Shown piece after piece: positions 22,741-41,087 of a stretch of 64,000 bases of DNA (position 1 is its first letter; every line of letters begins with the position of its first letter). The translations under genes were made by a program, and so were the position numbers. The notes beneath the pieces were generated by a model that had not been told where the DNA came from, made no database searches, and saw nothing but the letters and a program-made list of their open reading frames with translations. Source of the DNA: a virus (lineage: Duplodnaviria; Caudoviricetes); the IMG/VR virus record IMGVR_UViG_3300034069_002177, positions 1 through 64,000 of that record. One strand, written 5' to 3'.

Positions 22741-23379
22741 ATGAGTGAAGTACAGCAACTCCGAGACCAGTTAGAAGAGTTGGGTTTCACGGTTCTCAAT
22801 GACGCCAATGAACAAAATGCAACTTTCGGCGTTCTACCCGTAGAGGCATGGGTGCGTTATACGCCTTATGCACTCATCCCAGTTCCTATGCGCGGCGATA
22901 GTGAGACCGAGCGTTCTTATACGACTCGTATTCACATTGCTGACGAGTCAGTCGAAGCGTTGTACGCACAAGCTGCTGGTCGTGATAGCGAATTCAGCAT
23001 TCCTTCGTTTGATATTGAACCCGAACCAACCCCCGAGCCCGCATACGAAGAGACTCCCGAGCCTGATTACGACTCGGTTATCTACGATGACGAGCAGCCT
23101 GCCGTTATCGTCGTACCCGATTACATCACCGACCCTGACGACGATAATGATTACTACGCGTATATCCCTCCTGTAGTTGAACCAGAGCCGCAGCCGGAGC
23201 CGGAGCCAGAACCCATTGAAGAGCCCGTGGTTGAAGAAGCTCCTACTCCTGTCGAACCTGAAAAGTCAGAAACGAATGATTCGACCGAGTATGCTGAGGT
23301 GGATCGAGCAAAGCTCGTCGAATTGCGTTCACAGGTTCAATCCTTCATCGACACACTCGACGAAATTCTCGGTAAGTAA
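22741..23379 (+). CDS. Acidic Pro/Glu-rich protein with C-terminal helix
   Basis: PEPEPEP tracts; AAGGAAGG RBS; first gene of the run leading into the pilus cluster. Confidence 0.7.
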   Translation: MSEVQQLRDQLEELGFTVLNDANEQNATFGVLPVEAWVRYTPYALIPVPMRGDSETERSYTTRIHIADESVEALYAQAAGRDSEFSIPSFDIEPEPTPEPAYEETPEPDYDSVIYDDEQPAVIVVPDYITDPDDDNDYYAYIPPVVEPEPQPEPEPEPIEEPVVEEAPTPVEPEKSETNDSTEYAEVDRAKLVELRSQVQSFIDTLDEILGK

Positions 23380-23404
23380 CGGAGTCAGTTCCGTATGAAG
23401 CTAG

Positions 23405-24526
23405 GTGGAAAATACTGTGACCTTTGATCCTTTCGCTCCGACACCGGAGAATGACAAGAGCCAAGAGAAGAAGAACGTTTACGGCGATCTTCTGAATACT
23501 GATGGCAACCCGGAAGTAGATAAGAAGCCGAAGTTCGACCCTAACTACACCGGTCCTCAGTGGAACGAAGCACCTACTTCCGCACCATCTAAGCCCGCAT
23601 CGGCACCTAATCCAGAATCACGTCCTGTGAGCGCACCTGAACCCAAGCCTGTGAGCGCACCGGTACCGGAATCTTCTGCTGCCAAGGAACAAGACAGCAC
23701 CGATTCTGATGGTGCCGATAATGTCGATCCAAAAGACCACAAGGTTCTTCGGTCGAAGGCTGACCGTCAGCGCTCCGTAGCTGAGAGAAGTTCACTACCC
23801 AGCATCACACAGCGTGTTTCTGACGCTCGAAATCCTAAGAAGTTTCGACTTCTCATTGCGGCTATCGTTGTTAGTTTCCTCGTTATCGGCGGTGGTGCTG
23901 GTTACGGTGTCTATTACGCATTTAGCAACAAGTCCGATTCGCAGCAGATCCAGAACAACATCCTTAGTAAGGCAACAGTTCCTGGTCTTTCCGATGACCT
24001 CACCGCCAGTAAGATTCTCGCTGCGGCGCGAGTTGAGAAAGTCGAACCTATCTTGAATAAAGAAGCTGAGGCACTCTCGCAGGAAATTAGTGGATACGGT
24101 ACATACAAAACCACTCCTGGTATCTCGACGCAATTATTGACACCTGATGGCACCAAGCTTCCTCTTTATGTCGCTTCATCCAAAACGTATGGAACTGACG
24201 CTAAGCTGACCAACGACCAGAAGCAGAGTATCATTGATACCGTCAACAAGTACGCCGTACCCAAGGGTTACACCAAGTTCGAGTTGGCAAGTGGAATCAC
24301 GTTGGATAGCCCGCAGATTGTCGTCAGCGGAGCAAAGACTGCTAAAGATGGCTCGTTGGAGAGTTACAACGTCATCATCAACACCGCAGCACCGGCTACA
24401 TCCAATTCCACTTCGGTTTCCACTTCGGGCATTTATATCTCCTTCTATTCGTCTCCTCACATCAAAACAGGTGACGATGCAAAATTCACGAAGTACATTG
24501 TCGATTCTTCCGACACTGCTAAGTGA
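23405..24526 (+). CDS. Bitopic membrane protein upstream of pilB (possible alignment-complex component)
   Basis: Pro-rich N-terminus with SAP.P repeats, one TM helix (LLIAAIVVSFLVIGGGAGYGVYYAF), extracellular C-domain. Confidence 0.7.
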   Translation: MENTVTFDPFAPTPENDKSQEKKNVYGDLLNTDGNPEVDKKPKFDPNYTGPQWNEAPTSAPSKPASAPNPESRPVSAPEPKPVSAPVPESSAAKEQDSTDSDGADNVDPKDHKVLRSKADRQRSVAERSSLPSITQRVSDARNPKKFRLLIAAIVVSFLVIGGGAGYGVYYAFSNKSDSQQIQNNILSKATVPGLSDDLTASKILAAARVEKVEPILNKEAEALSQEISGYGTYKTTPGISTQLLTPDGTKLPLYVASSKTYGTDAKLTNDQKQSIIDTVNKYAVPKGYTKFELASGITLDSPQIVVSGAKTAKDGSLESYNVIINTAAPATSNSTSVSTSGIYISFYSSPHIKTGDDAKFTKYIVDSSDTAK

Positions 24527-24573
24527 GACGGCTACACTAACACCACAAGAACGAGCGGATAGGGTAGTAAGCG

Positions 24574-26292
24574 ATGGCTTTTGAACCAACAGAGTCTATG
24601 AAGGCTAATGATTGGCTGAATGGAATCTTCAAGGAAGCTTTCGAACGGGGCGCTAGCGATATCTTCATCGACGCAGTGTATGACGCCCAGGGAGAAATCA
24701 TGTCCTTGGAGCCAGAACTCCGAATTGATGGATGGAACATCAAGGAAGCTCCGCTTACTGATATCCGTGCTAGTCAGGTAATCGTCCTTATCAAGAACGA
24801 ATCAGAAATGGGTACCTCGGCGCTTAATGCCCCCGAGGAAGGTCGATTCCCCTTCAAGTATGAAGGTGGAGCAAACAACCCCGAGGACGCAGAATCGCTC
24901 GACGTTCGTGTCACTATCTTCCCCACGGTTACTGGGGAGTTCATCTCGATGCGTATTCCTCCCGTAGGTGCGCTTCCTGAACTCAGTAGTCTCGGTATTT
25001 CTGAGTACAACATGGGTCGCTTGAAGCAGTTGCTCTCTCGACCTCAGGGTCTTATCGAACTTGCAGGACCGATGGGTTCTGGTAAGACGACCACTATGTA
25101 CTCCGTCATGAAGGTTATCGGTGGAGAGCGTAGCTCGGTTGTCACTGTTGAAGACCCGAAGGAGCGTACGCTTGAAGGTGCCCGCCAGATGGTTATTAAC
25201 CCTCGTGGTGGTATGACCTATGCTGCTGTTCTGAAGTCTCTACTCCGCGTTGTCATGGACGCCATGCTTATCGGTGAAATTCGAGACATGGACACCGCCT
25301 CTGCTGCCGTGAAGTTCGCTACTTCCGGCACCAAGGTTCTCTCGTCCATCCACTCGGGTGATCCTGTTTCGGCTATTGCTCGTACTATCGACCTTTCCGG
25401 TGCTGGTGTTATCGCTGCGATGGAAGCACTCAGCGGCATCATGTCACAGCGACTTATTCGTACATTCCACGACTTCTGCAAGGGTAAGGGTTGTGTTGGT
25501 TGTGAGGGTACCGGCTATAAGGGTCGTATGCCTGTTCACGAGGTTCTCATCAACAGTTCCAGCATCACCGACCTTATGCTTCGTGGTGCTCCACGTAATG
25601 AGGTCCACAAGGCTGCACGTGATGAAGGTATGATTTCCTTCCACGAAGATGCTGACCGTTTGCTCGAAGCGGGTCGTACCGATGTCAAACAGATCGAAGA
25701 CTCGATTGGTTTCGATACCCGCGTACGTCCCAAGGTAGTAGACCTTTCTCCCGCAAGTGCGGATCATCGTCGTGAAGAGGAAGAGCAGGCTCGTCGAGTG
25801 CAGCAGGCTGCTATTACCGGTCGTGGTATTGCCGAAGAGCCTGAAGTACAGCGTCGCGTTCCTGCATCTGCTCCGGCACCTGCTTCCGCACCTCAGCCTC
25901 AGGGACAGCAGTCTGCTCCTACTCAGCCTCAGCGTCAGGGTGTTCAGCAGCCCCAGCAGGCTCCTGGTCAGCAGCGTCCCCAGGTCGCTCAGCGTCCGGT
26001 ACAGCAGCCTACACAGAATGGTCAGCCCCAACAGCGACCAGTTGGTCAGCCTCAGACGACTCAGCAGCGTGCCGCTCAGCAAGGTGCTGGTGCACCTCCG
26101 CAGGGACACCTTCGTCCCGGTCAGCCTACACAGCCTGGTCGTCCTCAGCAGCGCCCCGCACAACCGCAGGGTCAACAGTCTCCAGTCAGTTCTCAGAAAG
26201 CGCCGCAAAGCGCTCCTGGTCAGGCTAAAATCAACCCACAACAGCCAGTGAAACCAGCCGACCCGCTGAACTGGCTTGAAGAAACCAAGTAA
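24574..26292 (+). CDS. pilB: Type IV pilus assembly ATPase, PilB/GspE-like, with Q/P-rich C-terminal tail
   Basis: PEEGRF, RVTIFPTVTGE.ISMRI, GPMGSGKTTT, TVEDP, IGEIRD, CVGCEGTGYKGR.PVHEVL. Confidence 0.85.
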   Translation: MAFEPTESMKANDWLNGIFKEAFERGASDIFIDAVYDAQGEIMSLEPELRIDGWNIKEAPLTDIRASQVIVLIKNESEMGTSALNAPEEGRFPFKYEGGANNPEDAESLDVRVTIFPTVTGEFISMRIPPVGALPELSSLGISEYNMGRLKQLLSRPQGLIELAGPMGSGKTTTMYSVMKVIGGERSSVVTVEDPKERTLEGARQMVINPRGGMTYAAVLKSLLRVVMDAMLIGEIRDMDTASAAVKFATSGTKVLSSIHSGDPVSAIARTIDLSGAGVIAAMEALSGIMSQRLIRTFHDFCKGKGCVGCEGTGYKGRMPVHEVLINSSSITDLMLRGAPRNEVHKAARDEGMISFHEDADRLLEAGRTDVKQIEDSIGFDTRVRPKVVDLSPASADHRREEEEQARRVQQAAITGRGIAEEPEVQRRVPASAPAPASAPQPQGQQSAPTQPQRQGVQQPQQAPGQQRPQVAQRPVQQPTQNGQPQQRPVGQPQTTQQRAAQQGAGAPPQGHLRPGQPTQPGRPQQRPAQPQGQQSPVSSQKAPQSAPGQAKINPQQPVKPADPLNWLEETK

Positions 26293-26306
26293 GGAAAGCT
26301 ACCTAC

Positions 26307-27980
26307 ATGTCAGACGTAAATTGGGGCACGGGACCAGAAAAGACTCCTAACCCGCAGACTCCCCCTCAGGGACAGCCTATTCAGGGACGACCCGCGCCTA
26401 TTCCTACGCAGGGTGAACAGCCTCTTCGCGGTTTCCCCACTGCTGCTCCCCAGGGTCAGCGTCCGGTACAGCCTCAGCAGGCTCCTGGTCAGCGCCCCGT
26501 ACAGCCAGGTGCTCAGCGTCCGGTACAGCCACAGGTTCAGCCTGGCGCTGCCGTTCGTCCGCCCGCTCAGCAGGTAGGACAGCAGGCTCAGCGTCCCGCA
26601 CAGCAGCCTGTACAGCAGCCTGTACAGCAGCCTGTACAGCAGCCTGTACAGCCTCAGCAGCGACCAGTCCAGCCTGGTTCTGCTCCGGCGCAGCAGGCTC
26701 AACAGGGTCAGTTCGCAACACCTCCAGCTAATCAGCAAGGTGCTGTCTCCATCTCCGGTGCCGCAATCATCGACAATACTCCCGAGGATGTCGAACCCGC
26801 CGAGATGATTCAGTCCAAGCCTGCCGCCCCTGAGAAGCCAGCTTGGTACAAGAAGATCGAAGCTCAGATTATGCTCTGGGCTGAGACCGGTGTTTCCGAC
26901 ATCCAGATGGTTTCCGACAACTATGTGTGGATCGTTGACGACGACAACCACCAGCCAACCTCTCTGTGGTTGACTCGTGAGGATATTCTTCTTCTCGCTG
27001 ACTACTGGGTGCCTGAGAACAAGGCTCTCAATATCACTGGTGGAGCCAAGCACCTTGCCGAAGGGCATGAGGGTACACTTGAAACCGTGCAGACCCTCGG
27101 ACGTTCGTTCGCGTCTGACTCCACGCAGTCATGGCGTTCACGTATCATCTTCCGTCGTCAGGAAAATGGTCTCGGTGTCACGATGCGACTCATTCCGCCG
27201 ACCGTTCCTACGTTGGCTAAGTACCCTCAGCCTCAGCAGATCATGGATCTGTTGAAGGAGAACAACGGTCTCGTCATCGTTTCCGGTCCTACCGGTTCCG
27301 GTAAGACGACGCTTCTCGCCGCGCTTCTCAACGAGTACAACGAGAACAACCACCGTCACATGTACACCATCGAAGACCCGATTGAATTCGTGCACCTTCC
27401 CAAGAAGTCACTTGTCACTCAGCGTGAAGTCGGTCGTGACGTTGATGACTGGGCTGGTGGCATCATGGCTGCCGTTCGTTCAAAGGCTCAGGTAATCATG
27501 ATTGGTGAGCTTCGTGAGCTTGACGCTATCGTCGCTGCTCTTGACGCAGCCAACAAGGGTCACCTTGTGTTTGCAACGTCTCACGCATCTTCGGCTGCTC
27601 AGTGTATCGAAGGTATCGTTGCTCAGTTCCCACCCGGACAGCAGAACCTTGTGCAGAACCGTATTGCTGAGGTCATCAAGTGTGTTATGGTCCAGCGTTT
27701 GGTTCCCGCAACCGATGGAAAGCTCATCGCAGTGCGTGAAATCATGCTTGACCACACCACGACGACTCCTAACATCCGTGCAGGAGACTTCAGCAAGCTC
27801 ACAAACGCGCTAAAAGAGGAAGACGGGATGATTTCTTTCGAGCAATCTCTCTACTACCTTTACGAGGCAGGCAAGATTACTGAAGAAACCGCTCTGAAGT
27901 TTGCTAACATCAAGAACGATCTCGTCTTCAAGATTGACCGTCTCAAAGCGCGTAAGCGTGAAGCCGAATCCCGTCGCTAA
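26307..27980 (+). CDS. pilT: Type IV pilus retraction ATPase, PilT-like, with Q/P-rich N-terminal tail
   Basis: GLVIVSGPTGSGKTT, TIEDPIEFVH, QREVGRD, IMIGELRE, GHLVFAT.HA, GMISFEQSL..L...G.I. Confidence 0.9.
   Translation: MSDVNWGTGPEKTPNPQTPPQGQPIQGRPAPIPTQGEQPLRGFPTAAPQGQRPVQPQQAPGQRPVQPGAQRPVQPQVQPGAAVRPPAQQVGQQAQRPAQQPVQQPVQQPVQQPVQPQQRPVQPGSAPAQQAQQGQFATPPANQQGAVSISGAAIIDNTPEDVEPAEMIQSKPAAPEKPAWYKKIEAQIMLWAETGVSDIQMVSDNYVWIVDDDNHQPTSLWLTREDILLLADYWVPENKALNITGGAKHLAEGHEGTLETVQTLGRSFASDSTQSWRSRIIFRRQENGLGVTMRLIPPTVPTLAKYPQPQQIMDLLKENNGLVIVSGPTGSGKTTLLAALLNEYNENNHRHMYTIEDPIEFVHLPKKSLVTQREVGRDVDDWAGGIMAAVRSKAQVIMIGELRELDAIVAALDAANKGHLVFATSHASSAAQCIEGIVAQFPPGQQNLVQNRIAEVIKCVMVQRLVPATDGKLIAVREIMLDHTTTTPNIRAGDFSKLTNALKEEDGMISFEQSLYYLYEAGKITEETALKFANIKNDLVFKIDRLKARKREAESRR
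26601..26648 (+). repeat. Coding tandem repeat (CAGCAGCCTGTA)x4 = (QQPV)x4
   Basis: Four perfect 12-bp units in the PilT N-terminal tail. Confidence 0.9.
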
Positions 27981-27995
27981 CAAGGAAACAAATAC

Positions 27996-29879
27996 ATGTC
28001 CGATAACGAATACTACGGCTACAAAGCGCCCAAAGCGCCGGAGCCGGTATATGAAGAGCCTACGGGTTCGGATGCTGACCTCAATTCCGATTCATTCGGT
28101 ACGGGTGATGGCACCGATACGCCCTCTCGGCGTGGTCGAAAGACCAAGGAACCTCGTGGTAAGACTCCCCGTGAGCCAAAAGCACTACGCGAAAAGGCTC
28201 CGCGAGAGAAAGCTCCCCGTGTAGACAAGCGTGCTGAGGCTGCTGCTCGCAAGCAGGAAGCCAAAGATCGTGCTGAGGCTCGTAAGGCTCATGCTGCTGA
28301 ATCCAAGCGTGGCGGTAAGAATCTTCGTGAATCTACCCCAGATGTCCAGACGAGTGAGGAAATCAACAGCCCGTTTGATGAGAGCGGTGCCGGTTTCGGC
28401 TCCACCGCTGGTTCTTCTGGATACAACGACGATGCACCGACGCAGGCGTACAACCCTAACTTCGATTCCGTTCTTTCGGGCGAACCTGACCTTGATGGTT
28501 ACGGCGTTCTCCGTGATATCGACTACTCCAACGCTTCGACCGTCAAGGACGAGACCAGTGTTGAAGAGCTAGCTGATGAGGAATACAGCAAGGTTGACGA
28601 CGCTCCCGCCAAGGGCAAGGGTCGCGGACGCGCGCGTGGTAAGAAGCCTGTTACGAAGCGTAGCGATAAGAACGCCAGTATCAAGCCTTCTGTTGCCAGG
28701 CGTGACAGTAAGAAGAACTCCGCTTCTCGTAAGAAGGGTGGAAAGTCCGTACCTGACGATGCTATCAGCGCAATGCGTGGTGTCCCGCTCACTAAGAAGC
28801 AGCGTAAAGACGCTAAGAAGATCGACCCCGTACAGGCTGCGAAGTGTTTCCGTCAGCTTGCATTGATGATGCAGGTATCCCGAGACGAAATCGGTCCTAT
28901 CCGTCGTATTGCTGAGCAGTATAAGGGTAGCCCTATCGGTACTGTTTTCGCTAAGGTCTCCACCGACATGGCTGACAACAACATTTCGTTCTCTGCTGCA
29001 TTCGATAAGCACGGTAAGGTTCTTCCTCAGGTCGTCGTCAGCCTTGTTTCCGTTGGTGCTCGCGCCGGTAAGGAATCTGAGGCTCTCGTCAAGGCTGCAA
29101 CCATCATTCAAGACAATGCCAAGACTGGTAAGCAGGTCAAGTCGGCTCTTTCCGAGCCTTTGTTCACGCTTATCTTGACCGTGTTGTTCCTATTCGTTGT
29201 TCTGTTCGGTATCATCCCTCAGTTCAAGGTCGTGTTCGATACTCTCGGCAAGCCCCTTCCGTTGCTCTCCCAGATTCTGGTGAATGTGTCTACGGTGGTA
29301 GGTTATCTGACGGGTGTTGTTGCGGTAATTGTCATAGCGTGGCTGATTTACTGGAACCAAAAGGGTCGAGATAATGAGGATCTCCGCGTGAAGATCGATA
29401 CGTGGAAGCTGAATATGAAGCCTCACATCTTCGCTGACCTCATGCAGGTTTCGCAGATGTCTCAGGTGTTCGGTAACCTCCACACGCTCCGAGAGATCAA
29501 CATGTCTGAGCGTGACTCACTGATTACCACGGCTCGTTCTACGTCCAACTGGGCTATCCGCCGTCACTTGCTACAGCACGTAGACTTGATGGATAAGGGT
29601 GAAGCTCGATTCAAGGAGCTTGCCAATAACAAGCAACTGTTCCCCATTGACGCGGCATATACACTCATCGTTGGTGAGGATGCCGGTCAGGGTACGCAGA
29701 CTATCGGAATGATGGCTGAGACCTATAAGGAAGAGTCTGAGCTATCAGCCGCGCAGTTGGTTGTGGCTATTGGACCTATCGCTAACGGTGCGGTCGGTTT
29801 GGTCTACATGTTGGTCATGCTCGCGTCCTACCTTCCGGTGTTCGAGATGTACACCAGTATTGGTTCTGTCAACAGCTAA
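27996..29879 (+). CDS. pilC: Type IV pilus platform protein, PilC/GspF-like, with long charged N-terminal extension
   Basis: FRQLALMMQ, FS.AF.KH..V.PQ.VV.LV.VG...G, VKSALSEP, IIPQFKVVF..LGKPLP..SQILV, VGEDAG, GP; follows pilT. Confidence 0.85.
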   Translation: MSDNEYYGYKAPKAPEPVYEEPTGSDADLNSDSFGTGDGTDTPSRRGRKTKEPRGKTPREPKALREKAPREKAPRVDKRAEAAARKQEAKDRAEARKAHAAESKRGGKNLRESTPDVQTSEEINSPFDESGAGFGSTAGSSGYNDDAPTQAYNPNFDSVLSGEPDLDGYGVLRDIDYSNASTVKDETSVEELADEEYSKVDDAPAKGKGRGRARGKKPVTKRSDKNASIKPSVARRDSKKNSASRKKGGKSVPDDAISAMRGVPLTKKQRKDAKKIDPVQAAKCFRQLALMMQVSRDEIGPIRRIAEQYKGSPIGTVFAKVSTDMADNNISFSAAFDKHGKVLPQVVVSLVSVGARAGKESEALVKAATIIQDNAKTGKQVKSALSEPLFTLILTVLFLFVVLFGIIPQFKVVFDTLGKPLPLLSQILVNVSTVVGYLTGVVAVIVIAWLIYWNQKGRDNEDLRVKIDTWKLNMKPHIFADLMQVSQMSQVFGNLHTLREINMSERDSLITTARSTSNWAIRRHLLQHVDLMDKGEARFKELANNKQLFPIDAAYTLIVGEDAGQGTQTIGMMAETYKEESELSAAQLVVAIGPIANGAVGLVYMLVMLASYLPVFEMYTSIGSVNS

Positions 29880-29967: not shown

Positions 29968-30666
29968 ATGCATTTAATGGAACTTTACGACAACGACGTA
30001 TACCTCGGAGCAGGTCTCGCTGCGGTATTCGCTCTCCTGCTCATGGTATTCCTCCCCCGGCTCATGGGGGCTGACGTAAAGCCTCTGAGTGAAACACCTG
30101 GCTACTTCTACTGGTTGGCACCGCTCCTAGCTGCTATTACCGCTGGACTGTTGCAGTTGGTGGACAACGGAAATCAACTCACCATCATCACATGGAGTAT
30201 TGTCGCTGGTATCGGTGCGGTAGCAACCCTGACAGACTTCAAGGACCACCGAGTACCAAACATTCTGGCGTACAACCACTTCGTTCTGGTTATCGTCGCT
30301 GTTCTCGCCAATGCATTCGTCAACAACGAAGTAGGCAACCTTGTCTGGGCTGGTGTCGCTCTGGGTGGGGCTGCAATCCTCACGTTCCTCGGCGTGACGT
30401 TGCTGAAAGTCGGTGTTGGTGACTTCAAGTACATCCCCGTTATCGCCGCCGCATTAGGATTTATCAGTCCGTGGCTTGCGCTCGGGTGGATCATTACGGC
30501 ATACTTGCTCAACTTCGTGTTCGTCATCATTGCGTTCGTGTTCCACAACACGGAGAAGAACGGTCCTCGTTCGAAAGCAATGGCTCCAATGATCCCTCCC
30601 TTCTACTTCGCTCTGTGGGCACTTGTGCCTGTCATTAGCTGGGGTATGATTCAGGCACTAGCGTAA
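29968..30666 (+). CDS. pilD: Prepilin peptidase (A24) lacking the N-terminal Cys/methyltransferase domain
   Basis: Multi-TM; TLTDFKDHRVPN and VGVGDFKY catalytic Asp motifs; PMIPPF C-terminus. Confidence 0.85.
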   Translation: MHLMELYDNDVYLGAGLAAVFALLLMVFLPRLMGADVKPLSETPGYFYWLAPLLAAITAGLLQLVDNGNQLTIITWSIVAGIGAVATLTDFKDHRVPNILAYNHFVLVIVAVLANAFVNNEVGNLVWAGVALGGAAILTFLGVTLLKVGVGDFKYIPVIAAALGFISPWLALGWIITAYLLNFVFVIIAFVFHNTEKNGPRSKAMAPMIPPFYFALWALVPVISWGMIQALA

Positions 30667-30677
30667 AGGAAGCACAC

Positions 30678-30869
30678 ATGTTCAAAGGCAAGCGCTCTAC
30701 TCACGAAGATATGCTCGAACTCATGCGAGGTGGACTCACCTCCATCGATGATTTGGACGAAACTGTCTCATATATACGAAACGGGTTCGCTCTAGCAGGT
30801 GTCGCACTCGTTATTGCGGGTGGCATTGCAGTGTCATTCCCGTGGTATTTGGCGAATTACTGGCACTAA
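30678..30869 (+). CDS. Small membrane protein in the pilus operon
   Basis: 63 aa, AAGGAAG RBS, C-terminal hydrophobic helix. Confidence 0.6.
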   Translation: MFKGKRSTHEDMLELMRGGLTSIDDLDETVSYIRNGFALAGVALVIAGGIAVSFPWYLANYWH

Positions 30870-30880
30870 AACGCAATTTT

Positions 30881-30917
30881 GCCCCCATTTCAGGCTAATG
30901 TCCCCTGAAATGGGGGC
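30881..30917 (+). terminator. Hairpin separating the machinery genes from the major pilin
   Basis: GCCCCCATTTCAGG / CCTGAAATGGGGGC perfect 14-bp stem. Confidence 0.7.
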
Positions 30918-31064
30918 TTGTTGTAACCCAAAACTTTTCTATAATGCATCGATTTTTCAAAATTGACTCTTGACATCCGTACAATTGTGTACTAGCCGCT
31001 CGTAAAGAGTAGTTACCCAAGTCCATAGGGGGCTTAGGGGATTACCCTCCAAAAGGAAAACCAA

Positions 31065-31574
31065 ATGCTTAACATCAAGTCTCTCGACCTTCGCTCGGAT
31101 GCCGCTGAAAACTCGATCATGCAGACCATCACGATTGCTGTTTCTGCAATCTTGATCGCTGCCGGTCTTGTCACTGCTCCTGGTCTCATCAACAACGCTC
31201 GTGACAACAACGCCACGACCGACCTCGCCAACATCGCCTACGGTGAAGAGTTCAACCTCGCCAACACCGGTACTTATGCAGCCGACCTTGCTACGCTTCA
31301 GTCCAACGCTAACGCAGCAATCGCTGACGGCGGTTCTGGTCCTAAGATCACCGTTTCTGGTGGAACCTGGGACAGCGTAAAGGTCGCTGCTGACGCCAAG
31401 AGCTACACGCTCTACGCAGTCTCACAGTCCGGTAACGTCTTCTCGCGTACCTCTGACAGTGGTGCAACCACCAAGGTTGGAACCTTCTCCTTCACTGGTA
31501 CCGGTTCTGCCAAGGCTCTCGGCACCTTCACTGGTACCGGAACCCTCGTTGCTGGCGACTTCACCAAGAACTAA
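31065..31574 (+). CDS. Probable major type IV pilin
   Basis: DAA|ENSIMQTITIAVSAILIAAGLVTAPG; 169 aa; AAAAGGAAA RBS; strongly biased codons; flanked by hairpins, suggesting its own transcription unit. Confidence 0.8.
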   Translation: MLNIKSLDLRSDAAENSIMQTITIAVSAILIAAGLVTAPGLINNARDNNATTDLANIAYGEEFNLANTGTYAADLATLQSNANAAIADGGSGPKITVSGGTWDSVKVAADAKSYTLYAVSQSGNVFSRTSDSGATTKVGTFSFTGTGSAKALGTFTGTGTLVAGDFTKN

Positions 31575-32288: not shown

Positions 32289-32372
32289 TGATTGCCCTGC
32301 ATTACCCGCATTTTTCACTTCTCGTCTCGTCCATCTGAGATAATGAAGCACATCCCTGCCAGGAAAGACCGA

Positions 32373-34019
32373 ATGAAGCAATCAGCTACCCACACGCCTA
32401 AGACGCATCAGCGGAGGTTTATCGACATCCTCCGTGGTTTCATGCGCGATGATCGAGGTGACACGCCAATTCAGGTAATGATTGGTGCGTTCATCGCTAT
32501 CCTTCTCATCGTCCCTTCGATGACGTTCTTTGTGAACTTCCTCGCTACCACTTCGGTTACTGCTGTAGATGCAGAACGTTCCAAGGATATGCGTGCGTGG
32601 TCTATTGACGAGTTCGAAACAAAGCCTTGGGATGAGGTTCTTGCAACGTTCAAGTCCAACAAGATCGAGACCGGCGATGTCGCTACCAAGTTCAATTTCG
32701 GTATCAAGTACGCTGTTGACAACGTAGATGCTTCCGGTGGATATGTCGTCAAGCTTGTTGCGCCTCAGGCAAACGTGGATAACGCTACTTGTAACGACCC
32801 TCGCGCACACAAGACCAACGTTTGCTTGTACTACCAATACACCAAAACCCCTACACTTTCCGAAGGTCTTCCGCCAACGTGGAACGGCATGAACTACGGT
32901 AACGCTGATCTTCAGCCCGCCAGCGGAACTACTTCTCCCGCTCTTGCTGTCACCACGAACCGCACCATCAACGTCGGTACCTTCAATGGCTGCTCGGCTC
33001 TCACCCCTGACAAAATGCGTATCTCCTTCAAGTGGGTAAGCACGAACGGTATCCGTCCTACTTCGGTCCAGCACTTGGTTATCGGCGGGAAACTCTATGA
33101 GACCATTCCGCTGTCGTCGTCCTCTTCCAGTAACACTCTCTGGTATGCAGCGACCATCAACAAGCCTCAGGCATCTACGTGTTACAGCGCAGAGCAGGTT
33201 CGTATTGTTGTTGACAATGGTGCCAAGGGTACACTGAGCGACCTTTACGTCTCGCCTCTTCTCAACCAGTGCACGGCTACCGCAACCGACTCGAACTCCT
33301 GTGTCGCTGCCGGTAACGACACTTCCGACGCCAACATCCCGAACATCGTCTCGAACCCTGTATGGGCAACTGACGGTCTTACGTGGTACTTCAGCTTCGA
33401 CAGCCCCCTCACGGGTACCGCTGTTTCCAAGTACCAGATTCGTGGTACGGGAACCGAGTCCTCTTGTAACACCAATGTCACCATCATCAACGAAGGTAAC
33501 GCCAGCAACGGCACAGACAACGTATTCAAAATCGGTAGCTTCAACAGCCTTGCCGATTTGAAGAAGGCGGCTTGTGATCGTTACTATGTCACGTCGCTCG
33601 GTACCAATGGCTACAACAGCGCCGAGGTCAACTTCACTTCCGCGAACATCACCAAGGTTGTCAATGTCGATGGTTCCGGTTCCTCTGCCGCTCCTGCTAC
33701 CCCCACCACTCCGGTTCTTTCTTCGACCGCAACTGGAACCAAGTGGTCGCTCAAGTTCAGCGAAGCCAACATCAGTACCATTGACCACTTCAACGTCACT
33801 GGTAAAGGCACCAACGCCAAGTGTGTGACGACTCAGCAGAGCGTCAACCCTGTGGCAACGAGCGGAAACATCTACTCGTTGGGTACATTTACCAATGAAG
33901 CCGCCATGCGTGCCGGTACATGTGATAGTTTCAAGGTTGTCGCCGTTGGAAACAACGGACAGACGAGCAACCCTGTGACATTCACCACTGCCAGTATCAC
34001 TAATGTCGAAAATCTCTAA
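32373..34019 (+). CDS. Minor pilin-like protein with Cys-rich beta domains
   Basis: RDDRG|DTPIQVMIGAFIAILLIVP; two C-terminal repeats (W...F...I..F...G.GT...C); AGGAAAG RBS before ATG 32373. Confidence 0.75.
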   Translation: MKQSATHTPKTHQRRFIDILRGFMRDDRGDTPIQVMIGAFIAILLIVPSMTFFVNFLATTSVTAVDAERSKDMRAWSIDEFETKPWDEVLATFKSNKIETGDVATKFNFGIKYAVDNVDASGGYVVKLVAPQANVDNATCNDPRAHKTNVCLYYQYTKTPTLSEGLPPTWNGMNYGNADLQPASGTTSPALAVTTNRTINVGTFNGCSALTPDKMRISFKWVSTNGIRPTSVQHLVIGGKLYETIPLSSSSSSNTLWYAATINKPQASTCYSAEQVRIVVDNGAKGTLSDLYVSPLLNQCTATATDSNSCVAAGNDTSDANIPNIVSNPVWATDGLTWYFSFDSPLTGTAVSKYQIRGTGTESSCNTNVTIINEGNASNGTDNVFKIGSFNSLADLKKAACDRYYVTSLGTNGYNSAEVNFTSANITKVVNVDGSGSSAAPATPTTPVLSSTATGTKWSLKFSEANISTIDHFNVTGKGTNAKCVTTQQSVNPVATSGNIYSLGTFTNEAAMRAGTCDSFKVVAVGNNGQTSNPVTFTTASITNVENL

Positions 34020-34034
34020 GGAAGGAGACGGACA

Positions 34035-36215
34035 ATGCTAATCAAACTCAACGATTCCATGCGCAAGTTCTGGCGCATGGACCGCTCTTCATGGGGAAAG
34101 TTCCTACGCGGAGATCGTGCGTCGATGACGCAGGTCATGCTCATCAGCTTGATGATTCCCACGACCATTGCGCTCATTGTCTCCACGGCATTGACTCAGT
34201 TGTTCGTGCAATACCAGGATAACCGCAAGACGAATATGACTTCGGCTACCCAGGTTGCTTCCGCGTACCTTCTGAATGACATCAACACTAAGTTGCCGTC
34301 ACGATACGCCGCAATGACTCCTGCCCAGCTAAAGGCTGAGACTGCTGAGACCATCTCGACCGTGAATGCGACCACCTATGCAAAAACGTTCAACGTTGAT
34401 GCCAACGGTTGGATTACGGCTACTTTCGCGGTCAACCTTACTGGTAGTCCCGGTGATCCAGGAACCTACTCTGTGCAGTACCGCCCTACTTCGGCAACTG
34501 TCTTCAAGGGTTTCGACCCGACTACCAAGCGTCCCCTCTGGTCTTTCACCAGCGGTTCGACTGATGCCACTAAGTCTTTGACTCCTCTCGGTCTTTATGA
34601 GCAGGTTCCGACCGTTTCATCTGTTGGCGATTACCCGACCATCAACCGTCCCGGTGTGAAGGCTTCGGCTCCGTTGAATCTTCGTATTCTGCGTTCCAAG
34701 CAGTTCGGTCAGGTTCTGGCATGGGACAAGCCCGCTAACGCCGCCGACTCGCTTCTCACCGGATACCGTGTTGACTCCACCAAGAACACGGCTTGCTACA
34801 ACCTCGCGCCAGAAACCGGTACGGACGTATACGCTGACGGTTATATTACGCTTACCAAGGATTACAATTCCACCGATGTCTCGTCATGGAAATGTGGTTC
34901 TTCTGATCCTACCAACCGTGTATCCGTTCGCGGTATTGGTATCGCCGGTACCGGTGTTGCCGCATTCGTTGACTTGAAGACTGTTGTCACCTATGACTTG
35001 GACAACCTCAAGCCTTCCGTTCCCGCTAACGTGACATATGCCAAGACTGGTGCAAGTGACGTTCTTAGTTGGGACAACCAGACCTGTAACTTCGGTTACA
35101 ACATCCAGTTCCGCGTCTCTAAGACCCGTCAAGCTAATGTCACTGGTAACTACGGAATTACTGCCGACTGGTCCAACTACGTTGCTTCCGGTGGTCGTTA
35201 CAGCTTCGTCATCCCTGCCACGAATGTCACCGCTGGTGGTACGAATGGTTGGAAGGTCGAGGCTCGCTGTCTCAACAATACTTTTGGTGCATCCGACAGT
35301 AGTGGTCTTTCCAACGAAGCTACAACTGTTTCGCCAATCACGACCACTCCTAATCTCGCTAATGCGAAAATTAGTGGAACGACCAACTTCGGTACCGCTT
35401 CATGGTCCGCAGTCACTAACTGTGTCGCACCCGCCGTCGCTCAGTACCGCGTTTCGTACACCTTGCAGAATGGCGTAGCTGCTGATGATGTCATCAAGGA
35501 CTGGGGTGTCAATTACACGTCCGTTGGTGTCACAAGTAAGATCGGTACCAAGGCTGCTGTCGAGGTAGATGCGCGATGTGCTGCTGCCAATGGTGGTTCG
35601 GCATTGTATGGTCCGACCGCGACCGATACTTCCGACCCGTGGCTTGCAGCAGTCGGTGCTCCTACCGGAACACTGTCATTGACTGACAATAACGTCAATG
35701 TCGTTACCTACAAGGGTATGACTTGTGCTGCTGGTTCTACCATTCAGTATTACGTCACTCAGACCGTGACCAACGGTAGTGCTTCGGCAACTGTTCTTCA
35801 GAACTGGGGTGCAGCCGGTACCGATACCGCAACCACATCTCAGGGTGGAAATCAAACAGTAACCGCCAAGGCTCGTTGTGCTGTTGGTACCGTCTACTCG
35901 GCAAATAGCGCTACGGCAACTACGTCATGGACACGACCGGTCAGCGCTCCCGCATGGACCAAATATCCTGGTCTTTCGGGCTACCGTACATTCTCGTGGG
36001 CAGCTAGCTGTTCCGCAGGAACCGTTCAGTACCAGTTTGATGTCTACATCCAAGGCGGTGCTAAGCACGTCACTGGTGGATGGAACGGAACGACCCAGAT
36101 TAACGATTCCAACTTCGGCGGTGTCGGTTGGGGTTCTTACGGTGGAACAATTCAAGCTCGTTGTAACGTGAGTGGTGTAGTATCACCTGCCATCGTCGGT
36201 TCATCGAACGGCTAA
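34035..36215 (+). CDS. Large minor pilin/adhesin with FN3-like Cys-bridged repeats
   Basis: RGDRA|SMTQVMLISLMIPTTIALIVS; repeated W...C......QYR and V.ARC motifs. Confidence 0.75.
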   Translation: MLIKLNDSMRKFWRMDRSSWGKFLRGDRASMTQVMLISLMIPTTIALIVSTALTQLFVQYQDNRKTNMTSATQVASAYLLNDINTKLPSRYAAMTPAQLKAETAETISTVNATTYAKTFNVDANGWITATFAVNLTGSPGDPGTYSVQYRPTSATVFKGFDPTTKRPLWSFTSGSTDATKSLTPLGLYEQVPTVSSVGDYPTINRPGVKASAPLNLRILRSKQFGQVLAWDKPANAADSLLTGYRVDSTKNTACYNLAPETGTDVYADGYITLTKDYNSTDVSSWKCGSSDPTNRVSVRGIGIAGTGVAAFVDLKTVVTYDLDNLKPSVPANVTYAKTGASDVLSWDNQTCNFGYNIQFRVSKTRQANVTGNYGITADWSNYVASGGRYSFVIPATNVTAGGTNGWKVEARCLNNTFGASDSSGLSNEATTVSPITTTPNLANAKISGTTNFGTASWSAVTNCVAPAVAQYRVSYTLQNGVAADDVIKDWGVNYTSVGVTSKIGTKAAVEVDARCAAANGGSALYGPTATDTSDPWLAAVGAPTGTLSLTDNNVNVVTYKGMTCAAGSTIQYYVTQTVTNGSASATVLQNWGAAGTDTATTSQGGNQTVTAKARCAVGTVYSANSATATTSWTRPVSAPAWTKYPGLSGYRTFSWAASCSAGTVQYQFDVYIQGGAKHVTGGWNGTTQINDSNFGGVGWGSYGGTIQARCNVSGVVSPAIVGSSNG

Positions 36216-36223
36216 TCAGAAAG

Positions 36224-36979: not shown

Positions 36980-36983
36980 GCGT

Positions 36984-38216
36984 TTAGCCTTTGGACTGTA
37001 ACCAGTTCAACACAATGCCCGTCGTCTTCGTGATGGCGGGCATTTCTGTGGAGTAGGCGTGAGTGAGTTGAAGCAGGTTCGGGTGGGTCAGGTCGAGGTT
37101 GGTAAGTTTCTTCGACTCGCGGATGCGGACAACGAGGTATCCGGCATCGAGAAACAGTTGCGTATTTAGGGTGTCCCTGGCGGCGTTCTTAGGGATTTTG
37201 TGGAAGCGTTGACCGTCATACTCGATAATGATTGGTCGGTCGTTGTAGGTACCAATGATGTCTACTTGGATGGGTTTGCTAGCACCGGGCACGGTTACTT
37301 TGTGGAGGTGATCGGTGTTGATGGTCTGGAAGTGTTTAGCGAACTCATCACGGAAGACTTCTTCGGCTTTAGAGGTGCCGGGTGAGGGGTTGCATTTGGG
37401 GCAGCCTGACGGATTCGTTTTGCTACTTCTGGCGTTAAGCGAAATTTTCCATTCGTGTGAGTTCTTGCAGATCCACCAATACTTGACGTGGGTGCCGAAC
37501 AAAACCTCTAATGGAGAGAGTTCGTTCTTGGGAGACCATTCGGGCACGAGATGCGGAAGTCTGGTTGCGATGTCGTTGAAACCAATAAGAAGTACGCGGT
37601 TGGAACAGGTAGGACACCGGTTGCCACCGATGGTTAGCGCATATACCATAGTCGTCCATTCATGCCCTAATTCGCATTCCCAAATAAACTTCTTGTTGCT
37701 ACCCCTAACAACTTCAGTTACCTTTGTGGTGTTCTTTGCTGACCAGAATTTAGCCACATCGGGGTCTGTTGTTGCTAGATCGTTGTAGCCAACGTAAGCA
37801 GACAAACCTCGGCAAACTCCGCATCCAGTTCCTTGCAACGCTCGGCTAGCAATGCAAGCGAAGTAGTCATGACCAACCTTGCAGTCCCACCACACCTTGA
37901 CCAATGAGCCAGGCTTTACTTGGGAGGGCAGAAGCTCATTTTTAGCCGACCAGTCTTTGGCAACGTCGGGGTAAAGAGTCTCTAAATCAGTTTCTCCAGG
38001 AATAACTCGATGACCGGAACAATAAGGGCAGCCGTTACCGAGGTGAATGCGATTAGCAATTTTGGCAGCCCATCGGTGACCTCGACCGCACTCCCAATTG
38101 ACAGTCCCTTTTGCTCCAATTCTAATTTCCAGCAAGGGCACTTCGTTATCTAGACGATACTGATCGACCAAATGGGCATGCTGAGTATTGATTCGACAGT
38201 AGTCAATTAGAAGCAC
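36984..38216 (-). CDS. Zinc-ribbon repeat protein with C-terminal Vsr/DUF559-like endonuclease (homing-endonuclease-like)
   Basis: Four W.C..GH.W...GCP.C-type repeats; SKAE, VDI, IIEYDG..FH, RD, GYLVVRIRE; antisense insertion within the pilus cluster. Confidence 0.75.
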   Translation of the reverse strand: MLLIDYCRINTQHAHLVDQYRLDNEVPLLEIRIGAKGTVNWECGRGHRWAAKIANRIHLGNGCPYCSGHRVIPGETDLETLYPDVAKDWSAKNELLPSQVKPGSLVKVWWDCKVGHDYFACIASRALQGTGCGVCRGLSAYVGYNDLATTDPDVAKFWSAKNTTKVTEVVRGSNKKFIWECELGHEWTTMVYALTIGGNRCPTCSNRVLLIGFNDIATRLPHLVPEWSPKNELSPLEVLFGTHVKYWWICKNSHEWKISLNARSSKTNPSGCPKCNPSPGTSKAEEVFRDEFAKHFQTINTDHLHKVTVPGASKPIQVDIIGTYNDRPIIIEYDGQRFHKIPKNAARDTLNTQLFLDAGYLVVRIRESKKLTNLDLTHPNLLQLTHAYSTEMPAITKTTGIVLNWLQSKG

Positions 38217-38333
38217 GAGCGGTTTATACCACTCGAAGCTCCGATTTCGCTGTGAATGTCATCCGTGAACGATATAATCCAAGGGTAGCTATCTGTAGAT
38301 ACACCTTTGACCCATCCCAAAAGGAAAAACCAT

Positions 38334-41087
38334 ATGTTCACTGAACTTCGCAAGCGTCTTGTCTTTGCGCACCGCAATGATAGAGGTGAAAGTAGTATAA
38401 TGGTAATTATATCACAACAATTATCACTTCTCGTTTTGGCGGCACTTGCCGGACTTATGTTCATCCTTATTACCGGTGGCACCAAGATTCAAGCTGAAAA
38501 TTCGGCTCAAACGGAACTTCGTGTAGCCAACCGAGCATTCCTTTCCGATGTCGATAACGCATCAACTATCTTCGTTCAAGATGACACGAAGATGACTCTA
38601 TCGAGCACTAATTTCTTGAAAGACCCCACGGACGCAACGAAATACCTCTGTCGTTCAAGCTCGTGGTACATCGCCCCTGCTTCGGCTGATGTCAAGAAGG
38701 CTCGTAATGACAACACCTTGATGTCCCTCCACAACGACATCACAATTCACAAGACCGCTTCCTGCGCCAGCCCTGCTTCCTCTACGCAGGCTCGTACCGC
38801 AGTAACTGCAATTGCTCAGGATGCTACGTTCCTCTACAAGAACATTGCAGGCGTGCCGCTCAACTTCTCCAACGGTATTGTCACCAACTTCCAGAGCATT
38901 GACGCCAACAATGACGGCACCCTCTCGACCGCCGAGATCAACAACTTCCGTACCGCCAACAACGTTGACTCTTGGTACACCGATGATGAGGCAATGCGCG
39001 AGACTCCTAAGGTTATCGACGCGAAGATGACTGCTGTTCTCCCCATCACCGAGAACAACGTCGCAGAGTTCAAGGCAACTACCAACGATGCCGAGACCGA
39101 GCTTGTTGGTAATGACACCAACGTCACCGACCCTGGTGGAGAGCAGACTCGTTGGATTCCTAACGCTGTCAGCACCCCAATCCTCGCTCGTTCGACCACG
39201 ACCGGTCCTGTTGTCGGTGGCGTTCACGAAGGCATCCAGATTTCCTGGGCACCTCGTCCTGCCGCTGAGTGTGCCCCTACCCAGAAGCTCACTTACTCGT
39301 GGATTCTGACGAACCTCCGTACCAAGCATGTCTCTTCCGGTCAGACGACGGCGAACAATGTCACTGTTCAGACGAGCACTGGTCCTGCTGAAGTATGGAA
39401 CGGTGGAAAGTATTCTGCTTCTGTCGCTGCTCGTTGTAACGACATCGACGGTCAGAGCCCGACTACAACTGTTCCTTCTTATACCTTGCCACTTCCTGAT
39501 GTGCAGATTCATAACACTACTTCCAATGCTGCTGAAACCAGCACGGTTGTTTCTTGGGACAAGGCTTCCTCTGACCCCACGACGAAGTACACCGTCACCT
39601 ACACCCCTGCTAAGGTGTCCAATAGCTACAAGTTGGACAAGAGTGCTACCCCCGATGTGTACCGTTACTATTCGACAGCTAATGAGCCTACTGCGAACAT
39701 CTCAGGTGCTCCTACCTCCGCGTTGACGATTACTCACACAAAAAATAAGGTCACTCCTGGGTTCCCTGACATCTACTACGTCCGTGCGTCCACAACAGAT
39801 AGTCCGAACACTGGTGGTGACCGTTCCGCTGCCAACTACATCTACCGCTCGGATGAAACCGCCCACCCGAACATCAATGCCATTGATGCGAACAACGCTA
39901 CCTGGGTTGGTTCTGCCTGTGCTACTGGAAACACCAAGCTCTACCGCTCGGACGACTCCAATACTTACGGTGGTAAAAATACGACTGTGTTGACTGGTTC
40001 TAACGGTACCGGTGGCGCTACAGGTACCAACCGTAACTACGGAACCATCAATCAGGGTTCCAAGGTGTGGGTCCGTGTCGATCAGCGTTGTAAGACCATC
40101 TACACGGATGCTCCTACGAACAACCAGTCGGCTGCAAGTCTTAGCCCTTGGGGTGCAGATGAGACCGCTTCCTACGTTCGACCAATTAGCGTTCCCGCTC
40201 GTCCCACCAACCCTACTAACGTCTACGTTGGACACGGTAATGGTTCGAACGCTCAGACCGCATGGAACGCTGTTGCTTGCCCCACCGGCACCAACATCTC
40301 CTACGGTCACCGTTACGCTCGCGTGAACTCAAACAACGGTTCCTTCGGAGCTACTGAGATCACTGCTACCCGCCGTACGATTGCTCACAATGAAGGTCCG
40401 GGTGGCTTCTACGTCTGGGCTGTCTTTGCTAAGTGTTCTTCGAGTGCTTCTGGAACCAACTTGCATGCTCAGAGTGGCGACGCTTCGAACTCGTACTACA
40501 CGGACGTTCCCAACCCGACCCGTGCACCTGCTATCACGCGTAGCGTTGCCAGTACCCCAATCAACACTTCGGGTACCGTTTACGCCTCTGCGGGTGGTTG
40601 TGTCGCTAACACCGTCTGGTCTTGGAACAGCAACCCCGCTGGAACCTACAGCTACTCCACCAACGGAACTCGTACCTACTATGGTACCGGTCACTGCTTG
40701 GGTGCTAACGGTCGCACCTCGCCGGGTACGTCGTCTGACAACACCAACATCACGTGGTACACCCCAGCACCTAGCACTCCTGGTTCTGCTGGCGGAGTTT
40801 ACGTTATGACTTGTCAGAACGATGGAAGCCGCAGCGGATTCTCCGGTACTGCTAACTGGAGCGCATCGTCATACGCAACTAGCTACACCGTTACTATCTA
40901 CTACAAGAACCGCGCTGGTGGTACTTCAAGCCTGAGCTACACCACCTCGGGTACGAGTGAGTCGTTCGGTACCGGTTCTAGTGCTGGTGGTCCTAATGCG
41001 ACCGTTTCGGTTACTGCTCATGGTCCTGGTGGTACTTCTGGAACAGTTAGCAATTCACTAACTCTCATTGCCGGTGGTTGTCAGTAA
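38334..41087 (+). CDS. Very large pilin-like adhesin with EF-hand loop and FN3-like repeats (PilY1-like role inferred)
   Basis: RNDRG|ESSIMVIISQQLSLLVLAALAGLMFILI; DANNDGTLSTAE loop; Thr/Ser/Gly-rich repeats with paired Cys; AAAAGGAAAA RBS before ATG 38334. Confidence 0.8.
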   Translation: MFTELRKRLVFAHRNDRGESSIMVIISQQLSLLVLAALAGLMFILITGGTKIQAENSAQTELRVANRAFLSDVDNASTIFVQDDTKMTLSSTNFLKDPTDATKYLCRSSSWYIAPASADVKKARNDNTLMSLHNDITIHKTASCASPASSTQARTAVTAIAQDATFLYKNIAGVPLNFSNGIVTNFQSIDANNDGTLSTAEINNFRTANNVDSWYTDDEAMRETPKVIDAKMTAVLPITENNVAEFKATTNDAETELVGNDTNVTDPGGEQTRWIPNAVSTPILARSTTTGPVVGGVHEGIQISWAPRPAAECAPTQKLTYSWILTNLRTKHVSSGQTTANNVTVQTSTGPAEVWNGGKYSASVAARCNDIDGQSPTTTVPSYTLPLPDVQIHNTTSNAAETSTVVSWDKASSDPTTKYTVTYTPAKVSNSYKLDKSATPDVYRYYSTANEPTANISGAPTSALTITHTKNKVTPGFPDIYYVRASTTDSPNTGGDRSAANYIYRSDETAHPNINAIDANNATWVGSACATGNTKLYRSDDSNTYGGKNTTVLTGSNGTGGATGTNRNYGTINQGSKVWVRVDQRCKTIYTDAPTNNQSAASLSPWGADETASYVRPISVPARPTNPTNVYVGHGNGSNAQTAWNAVACPTGTNISYGHRYARVNSNNGSFGATEITATRRTIAHNEGPGGFYVWAVFAKCSSSASGTNLHAQSGDASNSYYTDVPNPTRAPAITRSVASTPINTSGTVYASAGGCVANTVWSWNSNPAGTYSYSTNGTRTYYGTGHCLGANGRTSPGTSSDNTNITWYTPAPSTPGSAGGVYVMTCQNDGSRSGFSGTANWSASSYATSYTVTIYYKNRAGGTSSLSYTTSGTSESFGTGSSAGGPNATVSVTAHGPGGTSGTVSNSLTLIAGGCQ

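Follow-up and report, generated by a model that had tools for sequence, protein, structure and literature searches.

Conjugation of the Gram-positive type is thought to be free of pili, relying on surface adhesins or, in actinomycetes, on FtsK-like translocases that act between touching cells. Conjugative type IV pili are known from the IncI1 plasmid R64, whose type IVb thin pili involve PilQ, PilR, PilS, PilU and the PilV shufflon, and from PAPI-1. Modular pilins with grafted binding domains are known from Streptococcus sanguinis. Type IVa-like pili have been described in monoderms, including Clostridium perfringens, S. sanguinis and the zoospores of Actinoplanes missouriensis, where PilB, PilC, a prepilin peptidase and pilins are encoded in one locus, without a secretin and often with PilT (PMC3244431, PMC6668835, PMC13595943). 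Here, we analysed a window of 64,000 nucleotides (nt), that is, positions 1 to 64,000 of the 203-kb IMG/VR record IMGVR_UViG_3300034069_002177, which originates from a plant metagenome. The genes for a type IVa-like pilus, with a PilT-family ATPase among them, are present in the window as a complete set. This gene set lies on a giant plasmid-like element and belongs to a clade of its own that is shared with cultured megaplasmids.

Between positions 24574 and 41087, every long open reading frame except one is located on the plus strand, with gaps of 3-195 nt. An earlier note on this DNA had listed PilB-, PilT-, PilC- and peptidase-like genes followed by a major pilin, four further pilin-like genes and a lipoprotein, and we found all of them on this strand and in this order (Table 1). 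The PilB-like ATPase matches the Pfam model T2SSE with 205.7 bits and covers the profile from end to end. With NCBIfam models it reaches 218.6 bits for GspE and 201.6 bits for PilB, far over the scores for TadA-like, VirB11 and archaellum ATPases; as the equivalog cut-offs are 630-676, the protein is a distant family member. Its closest solved structures in a PDB sequence search are Thermus PilF, GspE and PilB, and the H/Cys3 knuckle is conserved. For the PilT-like protein, the best NCBIfam match is pilT_fam with 261 bits, which falls under the subfamily cut-off of 319 bits, compared to 158 for TraJ, 141 for DotB and 88 for GspE. The top nine PDB sequences are all PilT or PilU (148-174 bits), followed by DotB (124) and GspE (70). 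In the translations of both ATPases, all four ATPase boxes (Walker A, Asp box, Walker B and His box) can be recognised. The PilC-like protein contains two T2SSF stretches (77.3 bits in Pfam) and matches HofC (122 bits), GspF (104) and PilC (104) in NCBIfam. The peptidase scores 23.5-25.5 bits with Peptidase_A24, slightly below the cut-off of 26.5, and both catalytic Asp motifs align with those of the prepilin peptidases annotated in RefSeq for the plasmids pS16 and pACHL01.

Other kinds of type IV filament machine fit the locus less well. The TadA-family model gives 23.7 bits for the PilB-like ATPase versus ~200 for PilB/GspE, and the two short pilins, with 169-186 amino acids (aa), a globular domain and no EY motif, are unlike Flp. 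This agrees with the earlier note, which had assigned the locus to the kind with PilB, PilT and PilC rather than to Tad/Flp pili. Features of the ComG competence pilus are absent as well: ComGA scores 154 bits, less than GspE and PilB, ComGB scores 49 bits for the platform protein, less than HofC, GspF and PilC, and a PilT-family gene is present. Searches for element-type genes covered the 203-kb record out of the 654-kb contig to which it belongs. In this record, the PilB- and PilT-like proteins are the only two T2SSE ATPases, and no secretin was matched, as the earlier note had stated for the locus. Our data support a type IVa-like pilus of the monoderm kind, self-contained and without secretin. 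Such a pilus is unusual for the phylum, but there is precedent since type IVa-like pili are known in some Actinobacteria (PMC6668835; PMC13595943).

In comparison with the described monoderm type IVa-like pili, the genes are carried by a giant plasmid-like element instead of a chromosome and their PilB falls into a separate clade. PilM was not found, the pilins have no Pfam or NCBIfam family and a predicted Glu1/Met5 N-terminus, the peptidase lacks a methylase domain, and all three motor proteins have long disordered tails. These tails (window 25700-28800) comprise a ~190-aa Pro/Gln-rich C-tail of PilB, a ~190-aa Pro/Gln-rich N-tail of PilT and a charged (Lys/Arg/Glu/Asp-rich) N-tail of PilC with ~260 aa. 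They are kept in L002 and L003, an 805-kb and a 495-kb contig with a syntenic pil locus, and are shorter or absent in L090-L092 and on the cultured plasmids. By functional analogy, the system would resemble R64-type thin pili in that a plasmid encodes both a type IV pilus and, separately, a DNA-transfer machine, and in having variable tip or adhesin subunits as possible determinants of recipient specificity. However, the R64-type system is diderm, of type IVb, dependent on a secretin and without PilT. The ATPases of the window score as PilB/GspE and PilT and not as the R64 transfer ATPase TraJ, and a mating role is here one that we infer. Pseudomonas megaplasmids of the IncP-2 type likewise exceed 400 kb and have a type IV pilus in their conserved backbone (PMC8628078), but the host is Gram-negative, the sequences are unrelated as far as tested, and the function there is unsettled.

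The 169-aa major pilin has no match in Pfam or NCBIfam. Among the 1.84 billion representatives searched, its family comprises 135 clusters, of which 110 have E<1e-10, and shares an almost invariant N-terminus, D-x-(A/G) followed by ENSIMQTITIAVSAIL. P0251, which matches the family weakly, belongs to the canonical type IVa pilins (KRG↓FSLLE..., with the arrow marking the cleavage site) and aligns in register. This alignment places the cleavage after Ala or Gly, with Glu at position +1 and Met at +5; for the major pilin, cleavage is predicted after Ala14, giving a mature N-terminus ENSIM.... The site thus departs from the canonical class III signal (Gly at -1, Phe/Met at +1, Glu at +5): Ala or Gly occupies -1, but Glu and Met are predicted at +1 and +5 in place of the usual Phe and Glu. 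Cleavage of the prepilin and a mature N-terminus with Glu1 and Met5 are predictions from sequence. Standard predictors seek G↓F...E, so that a family without Phe1 and Glu5 is missed. An AlphaFold model (AF2, 40 family members) has a predicted local distance difference test score (pLDDT) of 82 and a predicted template modelling score of 0.70, and shows a 56-residue N-terminal helix (residues 13-68) and a four-stranded sheet. The best PDB match of this model in Foldseek is Thermus PilA4 (6xxd) with E 5e-4 and a template modelling (TM) score of 0.64, and six of the seven next-ranked matches are type IV pilins. Judging from the model, the protein is a major pilin with a type IV pilin fold.

The proteins starting at 31728, 32292, 34035 and 38307 have a charged leader, a DRG↓(D/E)-like motif and one hydrophobic helix. 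The second short pilin belongs to a homologue cluster of its own. A model of the 558-aa pilin-like protein with modest confidence (pLDDT 68) has a long helix followed by beta-sandwich domains; Foldseek returned for it only generic fibronectin type III/immunoglobulin arrays at low TM score. The gene of this 558-aa protein is conserved in a sister clade described below. Additionally, four modular pilins combine the N-terminus of the major pilin with a large head. Their genes are dispersed over the element, a long way from those of the machinery, and their heads are mutually divergent. For the head of the pilin at 5565-6941, no Pfam match was obtained, and a search of the ESM Atlas gave no usable match and a poor Atlas model. 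Most family members found elsewhere have 300-1000 aa, with heads that are mostly NHL, BNR/sortilin, He_PIG, PKD and DUF285 domains; grafted domains are likewise seen in the modular pilins of S. sanguinis. In the family members P0157, P0206, P0237, P0239 and P0247, a lipoprotein signal (LSGC/LSAC) replaces the pilin helix and the globular domain is kept.

Table 1. Genes of the pil locus and related or neighbouring features. Coordinates refer to the window unless marked as record positions.
Feature	Coordinates	Strand	Evidence
PilB/GspE-type extension ATPase, 572 aa	24574..26292	+	Family, motif and PDB matches
PilT/PilU-family ATPase, presumed retraction motor, 557 aa	26307..27980	+	NCBIfam and PDB
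PilC/GspF-type platform	27996..29879	+	Two T2SSF domains, NCBIfam, transmembrane helices
A24-like prepilin peptidase, ~8 transmembrane helices, no methyltransferase domain	29968..30666	+	Pfam, alignment
Small bitopic protein, 63 aa, syntenic in close relatives	30678..30869	+	
Major pilin, 169 aa	31065..31574	+	Family search, AlphaFold, Foldseek
Second, divergent pilin paralogue, 186 aa	31728..32288	+	Same N-terminal motif
Large pilin-like protein, 558-575 aa, pilin-type N-terminus, then tandem beta-sandwich domains	32292..34019	+	
Large pilin-like protein, 726 aa, repeated Cys-bracketed modules	34035..36215	+	
Lipoprotein, 251 aa, LLAGC lipobox, syntenic in L002	36224..36979	+	
Largest pilin-like protein, 926 aa	38307..41087	+	
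Remote modular pilin, 458 aa, major-pilin N-terminal module and ~300-aa head	5565..6941	+	
Second remote modular pilin, 469 aa, tandem paralogue (45% identity to 5565-6941)	6934..8343	+	
Further modular pilins, major-pilin N-terminus and large head	record 81954-83537; 113359-114231		
Acidic Pro-rich 212-aa protein, doubtful locus member	22741..23379	+	No Pfam match
Bitopic 373-aa protein, possible clade-specific accessory	23405..24526	+	No family match
DUF4379 zinc-finger repeats and restriction-endonuclease-like domain, outside the pilus set	36984..38216	-	

The nearest cultured relatives are circular megaplasmids of Micrococcales, namely pS16 of Curtobacterium (546 kb), pCPAA3 of Curtobacterium pusillum (567 kb) and pACHL01 of Pseudarthrobacter chlorophenolicus (427 kb). 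Orthologues on these megaplasmids share with the window 34% identity for PilB, 38-40% for PilT, 26-32% for PilC and 27-32% for the pilins, and a peptidase orthologue is found too. The gene order on pACHL01 is that of the window, and pS16 has an equal gene set. The megaplasmids also carry arrays of 37-38 tRNAs (NZ_CP126255.1, 480-492 kb; NC_011879.1, 28-37 kb; pCPAA3, G001:C2, 252-266 kb), and a transfer-messenger RNA (tmRNA) on pCPAA3 has been reported (PMC10832533). They are, however, only distant relatives, with a GC content of 65-67% versus 51% for the window element, shorter motor proteins without tails, and pilins reading ..DRG↓ATDPI.. versus ..A↓ENSIM.. in the window. The names of their pil clusters in RefSeq are generic only, and in the literature searched we found no paper that describes actinobacterial megaplasmid pil clusters or this pilin family. 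In a quick IQ-TREE analysis of 43 rows, hand-chosen from the best PilB matches, the window protein, its uncultured relatives and the three megaplasmids form one clade with a Shimodaira-Hasegawa-like approximate likelihood ratio test support of 100. Chromosomal PilB proteins of Actinomycetota form a separate clade, which includes the second pil cluster of pACHL01. PilB of the window therefore groups with megaplasmid copies and not with chromosomal actinobacterial orthologues. Among 185,579 species genomes, no close PilB homologue was found, the best one being 34% identical. The host most likely belongs to the plant-associated Actinobacteria; the phylum is deduced from distant relatives (34-40% identity).

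Several features of the record point to a plasmid. A PilB identical to that of the window is encoded on a 654-kb contig, from which the 203-kb record is a cut-out, and relatives with 78-91% identical PilB are found on contigs of 412, 495, 637 and 805 kb. To the left of the first base of the record lie MoxR, DUF58, two VWA genes and hypotheticals, which look like genes of the same element, unlike host core genes; beyond the right end, the Logan contig stops after ~750 bp. The record encodes DnaX and a VirB4-like protein, which matches AAA_10 with 47.6-50 bits (cut-off 27.5) and whose sole matches in PLSDB are proteins of pS16 and pCPAA3 with 22% identity. Also encoded are a 1030-aa FtsK/SpoIIIE protein (60 bits for the domain; PDB matches to FtsK with E 7e-17) and an ArdC-like anti-restriction match. 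An array of 14 kb holds 64 tRNAs, with many duplicates, and tmRNA. No near-identical DNA was detected in phage and plasmid collections, and a single-protein scan of IMG/VR gave no PilB relatives. The evidence points to a giant plasmid-like element of ~0.4-0.8 Mb, with a plasmid favoured over a phage. The earlier note had called the surroundings phage- or plasmid-type; the plasmid part of this description stands with the VirB4-like and FtsK-like genes, but the phage part does not, given that no capsid or terminase match was obtained in the 203-kb record. Its central claim, a complete type IV pilus encoded by the mobile element itself, has held up, with family, structure and phylogeny tests in agreement.

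The pil genes are well conserved among relatives. Between the window and L002, PilB, PilT and PilC are 83% identical, the highest values of the neighbourhood, whereas flanking genes reach 43-73% and those on the upstream side 51-73%. The peptidase is 68% identical, the major pilin 72% and the large pilins 56-63%, while the second pilin shares 38% with the single pilin of L002; both L002 and L003 have one short pilin only. In a sister clade with 44-52% identical PilB, identity is 62% for PilT and 60-64% for PilC versus 40-43% for DnaX, a 921-aa ATPase and a 417-aa protein. The pil gene set is under purifying selection. The sister clade comprises the loci L089, L090 and L093 from three samples, and L101, possibly of one lineage with L089. 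There, the pil operon is located directly 3′ of homologues of the transfer block. In our record, this block lies at 152.7-163.6 kb, after the VirB4-like gene, and encodes a VirB6-like 1297-aa protein, DnaX and proteins of 379, 921 and 417 aa. The platform gene of pS16 directly adjoins an FtsK/SpoIIIE gene. The more distant relative L102 has no pil genes within 10 kb, and a ParB-like gene is found upstream of the distant pil operons L091 and L094. The best-conserved gene of the block encodes the 921-aa protein (record 159637-162402; L007:15738-18503), which has an N-terminal hydrophobic segment, a Walker A motif GAPGSGKT and a Walker B-like motif DEVAD. It has no Pfam match, and a PDB sequence search gave only chance-level matches; it is a candidate coupling protein. 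With so few relatives of this protein (5 in metagenomes and 1 in IMG/VR), the frequency of pil/transfer adjacency is not estimable.

Hints to expression come from four RNA-seq libraries of phyllosphere and leaf litter, in which contigs of 348-587 nt cover 31048-31364, the start of the major pilin gene. They are ~87% identical to the window (~1 difference per 8 positions), and the overhangs are compatible with a transcript that spans roughly just the pilin gene. The pilin gene of a relative may thus be transcribed in phyllosphere and leaf litter, which is a weak hint only, as the contigs stem from a relative and carry-over of DNA is possible. The PafBC-type promoter motif has 7 matches in the window, none of them upstream of a pil gene. 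Scans of the locus for sigma-70 promoters and terminators gave no excess over shuffled expectation, so that a promoter-like site at 30956-30985 and a hairpin at 30900-30917 are only suggestive.

How could such a machine work for a plasmid? The A24-type peptidase would cut the prepilins after Gly or Ala, at the site placed by the alignment, to give subunits with Glu1 and Met5. Judging from their families, the PilB-type ATPase on the PilC platform would polymerise the 169-aa pilin into a filament, which the PilT-family ATPase would disassemble again, drawing bound objects to the cell. Binding specificity may come from the three large pilin-like proteins and from the modular pilins, of which there are at least four, all built into or onto the filament. 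In the scheme that we propose, the pilus catches neighbouring cells and pulls them into wall-to-wall contact, upon which a VirB4-like/FtsK-like machine could pass the DNA. Monoderms would thus have an equivalent of the thin pili of IncI plasmids. Cell capture is favoured by the conservation of the module as backbone across relatives of very different GC content, by its better conservation compared to the transfer genes and by the joining of the pil operon to the transfer cluster in one lineage. That the pilus mainly serves the element, by capturing recipients for conjugation, appears to us about evenly balanced between right and wrong, with a slight lean to caution. More tentative still is the far-reaching version, in which the pilus is the recipient-capture organelle of an undescribed class of giant actinobacterial conjugative plasmids and the first retractile conjugative pilus of a monoderm, with the modular pilins as determinants of recipient specificity and Glu1/Met5 as a new assembly chemistry. 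We infer the biological role, polymerisation, retraction and the display of modular pilins on the filament.

A number of observations speak against recipient capture or against parts of it. Only gene content and synteny speak to the role. In this element and in its close relatives L097, L099 and L100, the pil operon is apart from the transfer block (~105 kb here); the two are adjacent in just one sister clade, and not in the more distant L102, L091 and L094. The transfer machine itself is poorly defined: Pfam models for VirD4 and TcpC gave no match, and a PDB sequence search with the VirB4-like protein gave only chance-level matches. As to the pilus, PilM (PilM_2) was not matched in the 203-kb record, and no PilN/PilO match was obtained among the genes of the pil locus, PilN and PilO not having been searched for as families. 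An alignment to PilT (2gsz) showed that the AIRNLIRE motif is not kept in the PilT-like protein. The element has a GC content of 51%, far below that of Micrococcales, and the host phylum rests on 34-40% identity. NHL, BNR and PKD heads are equally suited to binding plant or other surfaces.

This last point leads to a role of the same machine as an accessory that benefits the host, in adhesion to leaves or litter, microcolonies or twitching, with heads that bind plant or environmental glycans and only an indirect gain for the plasmid. The NHL, BNR/sortilin, PKD, He_PIG and DUF285 heads are characteristic of proteins that bind glycans or surfaces, the DNA comes from a plant metagenome, relatives occur in phyllosphere and leaf-litter RNA libraries, the core of Pseudomonas megaplasmids has a type IV pilus with chemotaxis genes (PMC8628078), and the operon is far from the transfer genes in this element. 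On the other hand, the module is kept across relatives with GC contents of 46-73%, so probably in different hosts and niches, it is better conserved than backbone genes, and it is contiguous with transfer genes in the sister clade. We regard the host-benefit role, the main rival of recipient capture, as unlikely on balance, although it deserves serious consideration; sequence alone cannot separate it from capture for transfer. Uptake of DNA would be another use of retraction, as PilB, PilT, PilC and pilins are parts of transformation pili in other phyla (PMC6370729), and the host would then be made to import DNA. However, mobile elements usually suppress competence rather than promote it (PMC12378983), and large heads on many pilins suggest binding of surfaces or cells over DNA, which makes a competence pilus improbable.

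The nature of the carrier bears on recipient capture as well. IMG/VR lists the record as a 203-kb provirus with a CheckV completeness of 96%, and tRNA arrays, nicotinamide adenine dinucleotide (NAD) salvage, ribonucleotide reductase, ligase, RtcB and a replisome are common in jumbo phages too, so that the pilus could be a device of a huge phage for host takeover or superinfection control. But the HK97 capsid (PF05065) and TerL (PF03354) gave no match in the 203 kb of the record, none of the 30 large proteins scanned matched structural PHROG families, VirB4-like, FtsK-like and ArdC-like genes are present, the contig has 654 kb, and the same features recur on circular plasmids of isolates, the closest relatives in culture. 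A phage origin is therefore very improbable, and what IMG/VR lists as a provirus has most probably been cut from a plasmid of >0.6 Mb. Least probable of all, and hardly credible, is that the pilus was vertically inherited on a cellular chromosome, be it that of the host or that of an epibiont with a small genome, for instance one of the Patescibacteria. Ultra-small bacteria would fit the contig sizes of 0.4-0.8 Mb, the replisome, the gyrase-like genes, tmRNA, the many tRNAs and also the type IV pilus; yet neither 16S rRNA nor ribosomal protein S12 was matched in the 203 kb, all 64 tRNAs lie in one array with duplicates, as on Micrococcales plasmids, PilB clusters with plasmid copies apart from chromosomal ones, and the species genomes hold no close homologue. 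The case that the earlier note had named as refuting its claim, a host chromosome whose pil genes branch with vertically inherited orthologues, is thus not what we found: the pil genes branch with megaplasmid copies, and the 203-kb record lacks rRNA and S12 matches and contains the VirB4-like and FtsK-like genes.

The extent of the locus needs some revision. The earlier note had drawn it from 22741 to 41087; its core is confirmed from 24574 onwards, but the genes at 22741-24526 lack a family match and are absent beside pilB in the sister clade, 36984-38216 is an unrelated insertion, and four more pilins lie outside. The 22741-23379 protein is conserved in the close clade only (51% and 34% identity). 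No homologue was detected next to pilB in L089, L090 and L093, and L089 has an unrelated 210-aa gene at this place. The 23405-24526 protein consists of a disordered N-terminal part, a transmembrane helix (147-165) and an outer domain of ~210 aa; it is 43% identical in L002 and 31% in L003 and is not present in the sister clade. Neighbouring bitopic proteins have no match to a Pfam or NCBIfam family. The minus-strand gene, located after the lipoprotein gene and before the last pilin gene, encodes a protein with four treble-clef zinc fingers (DUF4379) and a C-terminus that resembles a restriction endonuclease, and its absence from this site in L002 identifies it as an insertion. In the pil cluster of pACHL01, an HNH gene is inserted. 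Upstream of the pil region, window 8389-16062 carries a cluster for NAD salvage and nucleotide metabolism that is syntenic in L002 and L003, with genes for a CCA-adding enzyme and 5′-nucleotidase and for phosphoribosyl-pyrophosphate-synthetase-like, Nampt-like, nucleoside deoxyribosyltransferase-like and NUDIX/NrtR proteins.

For database labelling, the record is most probably a case of a plasmid piece that IMG/VR has filed as a provirus. With its 135 clusters, its lack of a database family and its many members with large binding heads, the pilin family adds to the diversity known for type IV pilins. If giant actinobacterial plasmids do carry a conserved retractable pilus, in one lineage next to their transfer genes, the view that conjugation of this type is free of pili would have to be revised. 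As cultured strains of Curtobacterium and Pseudarthrobacter carry homologous plasmids, this idea is testable.

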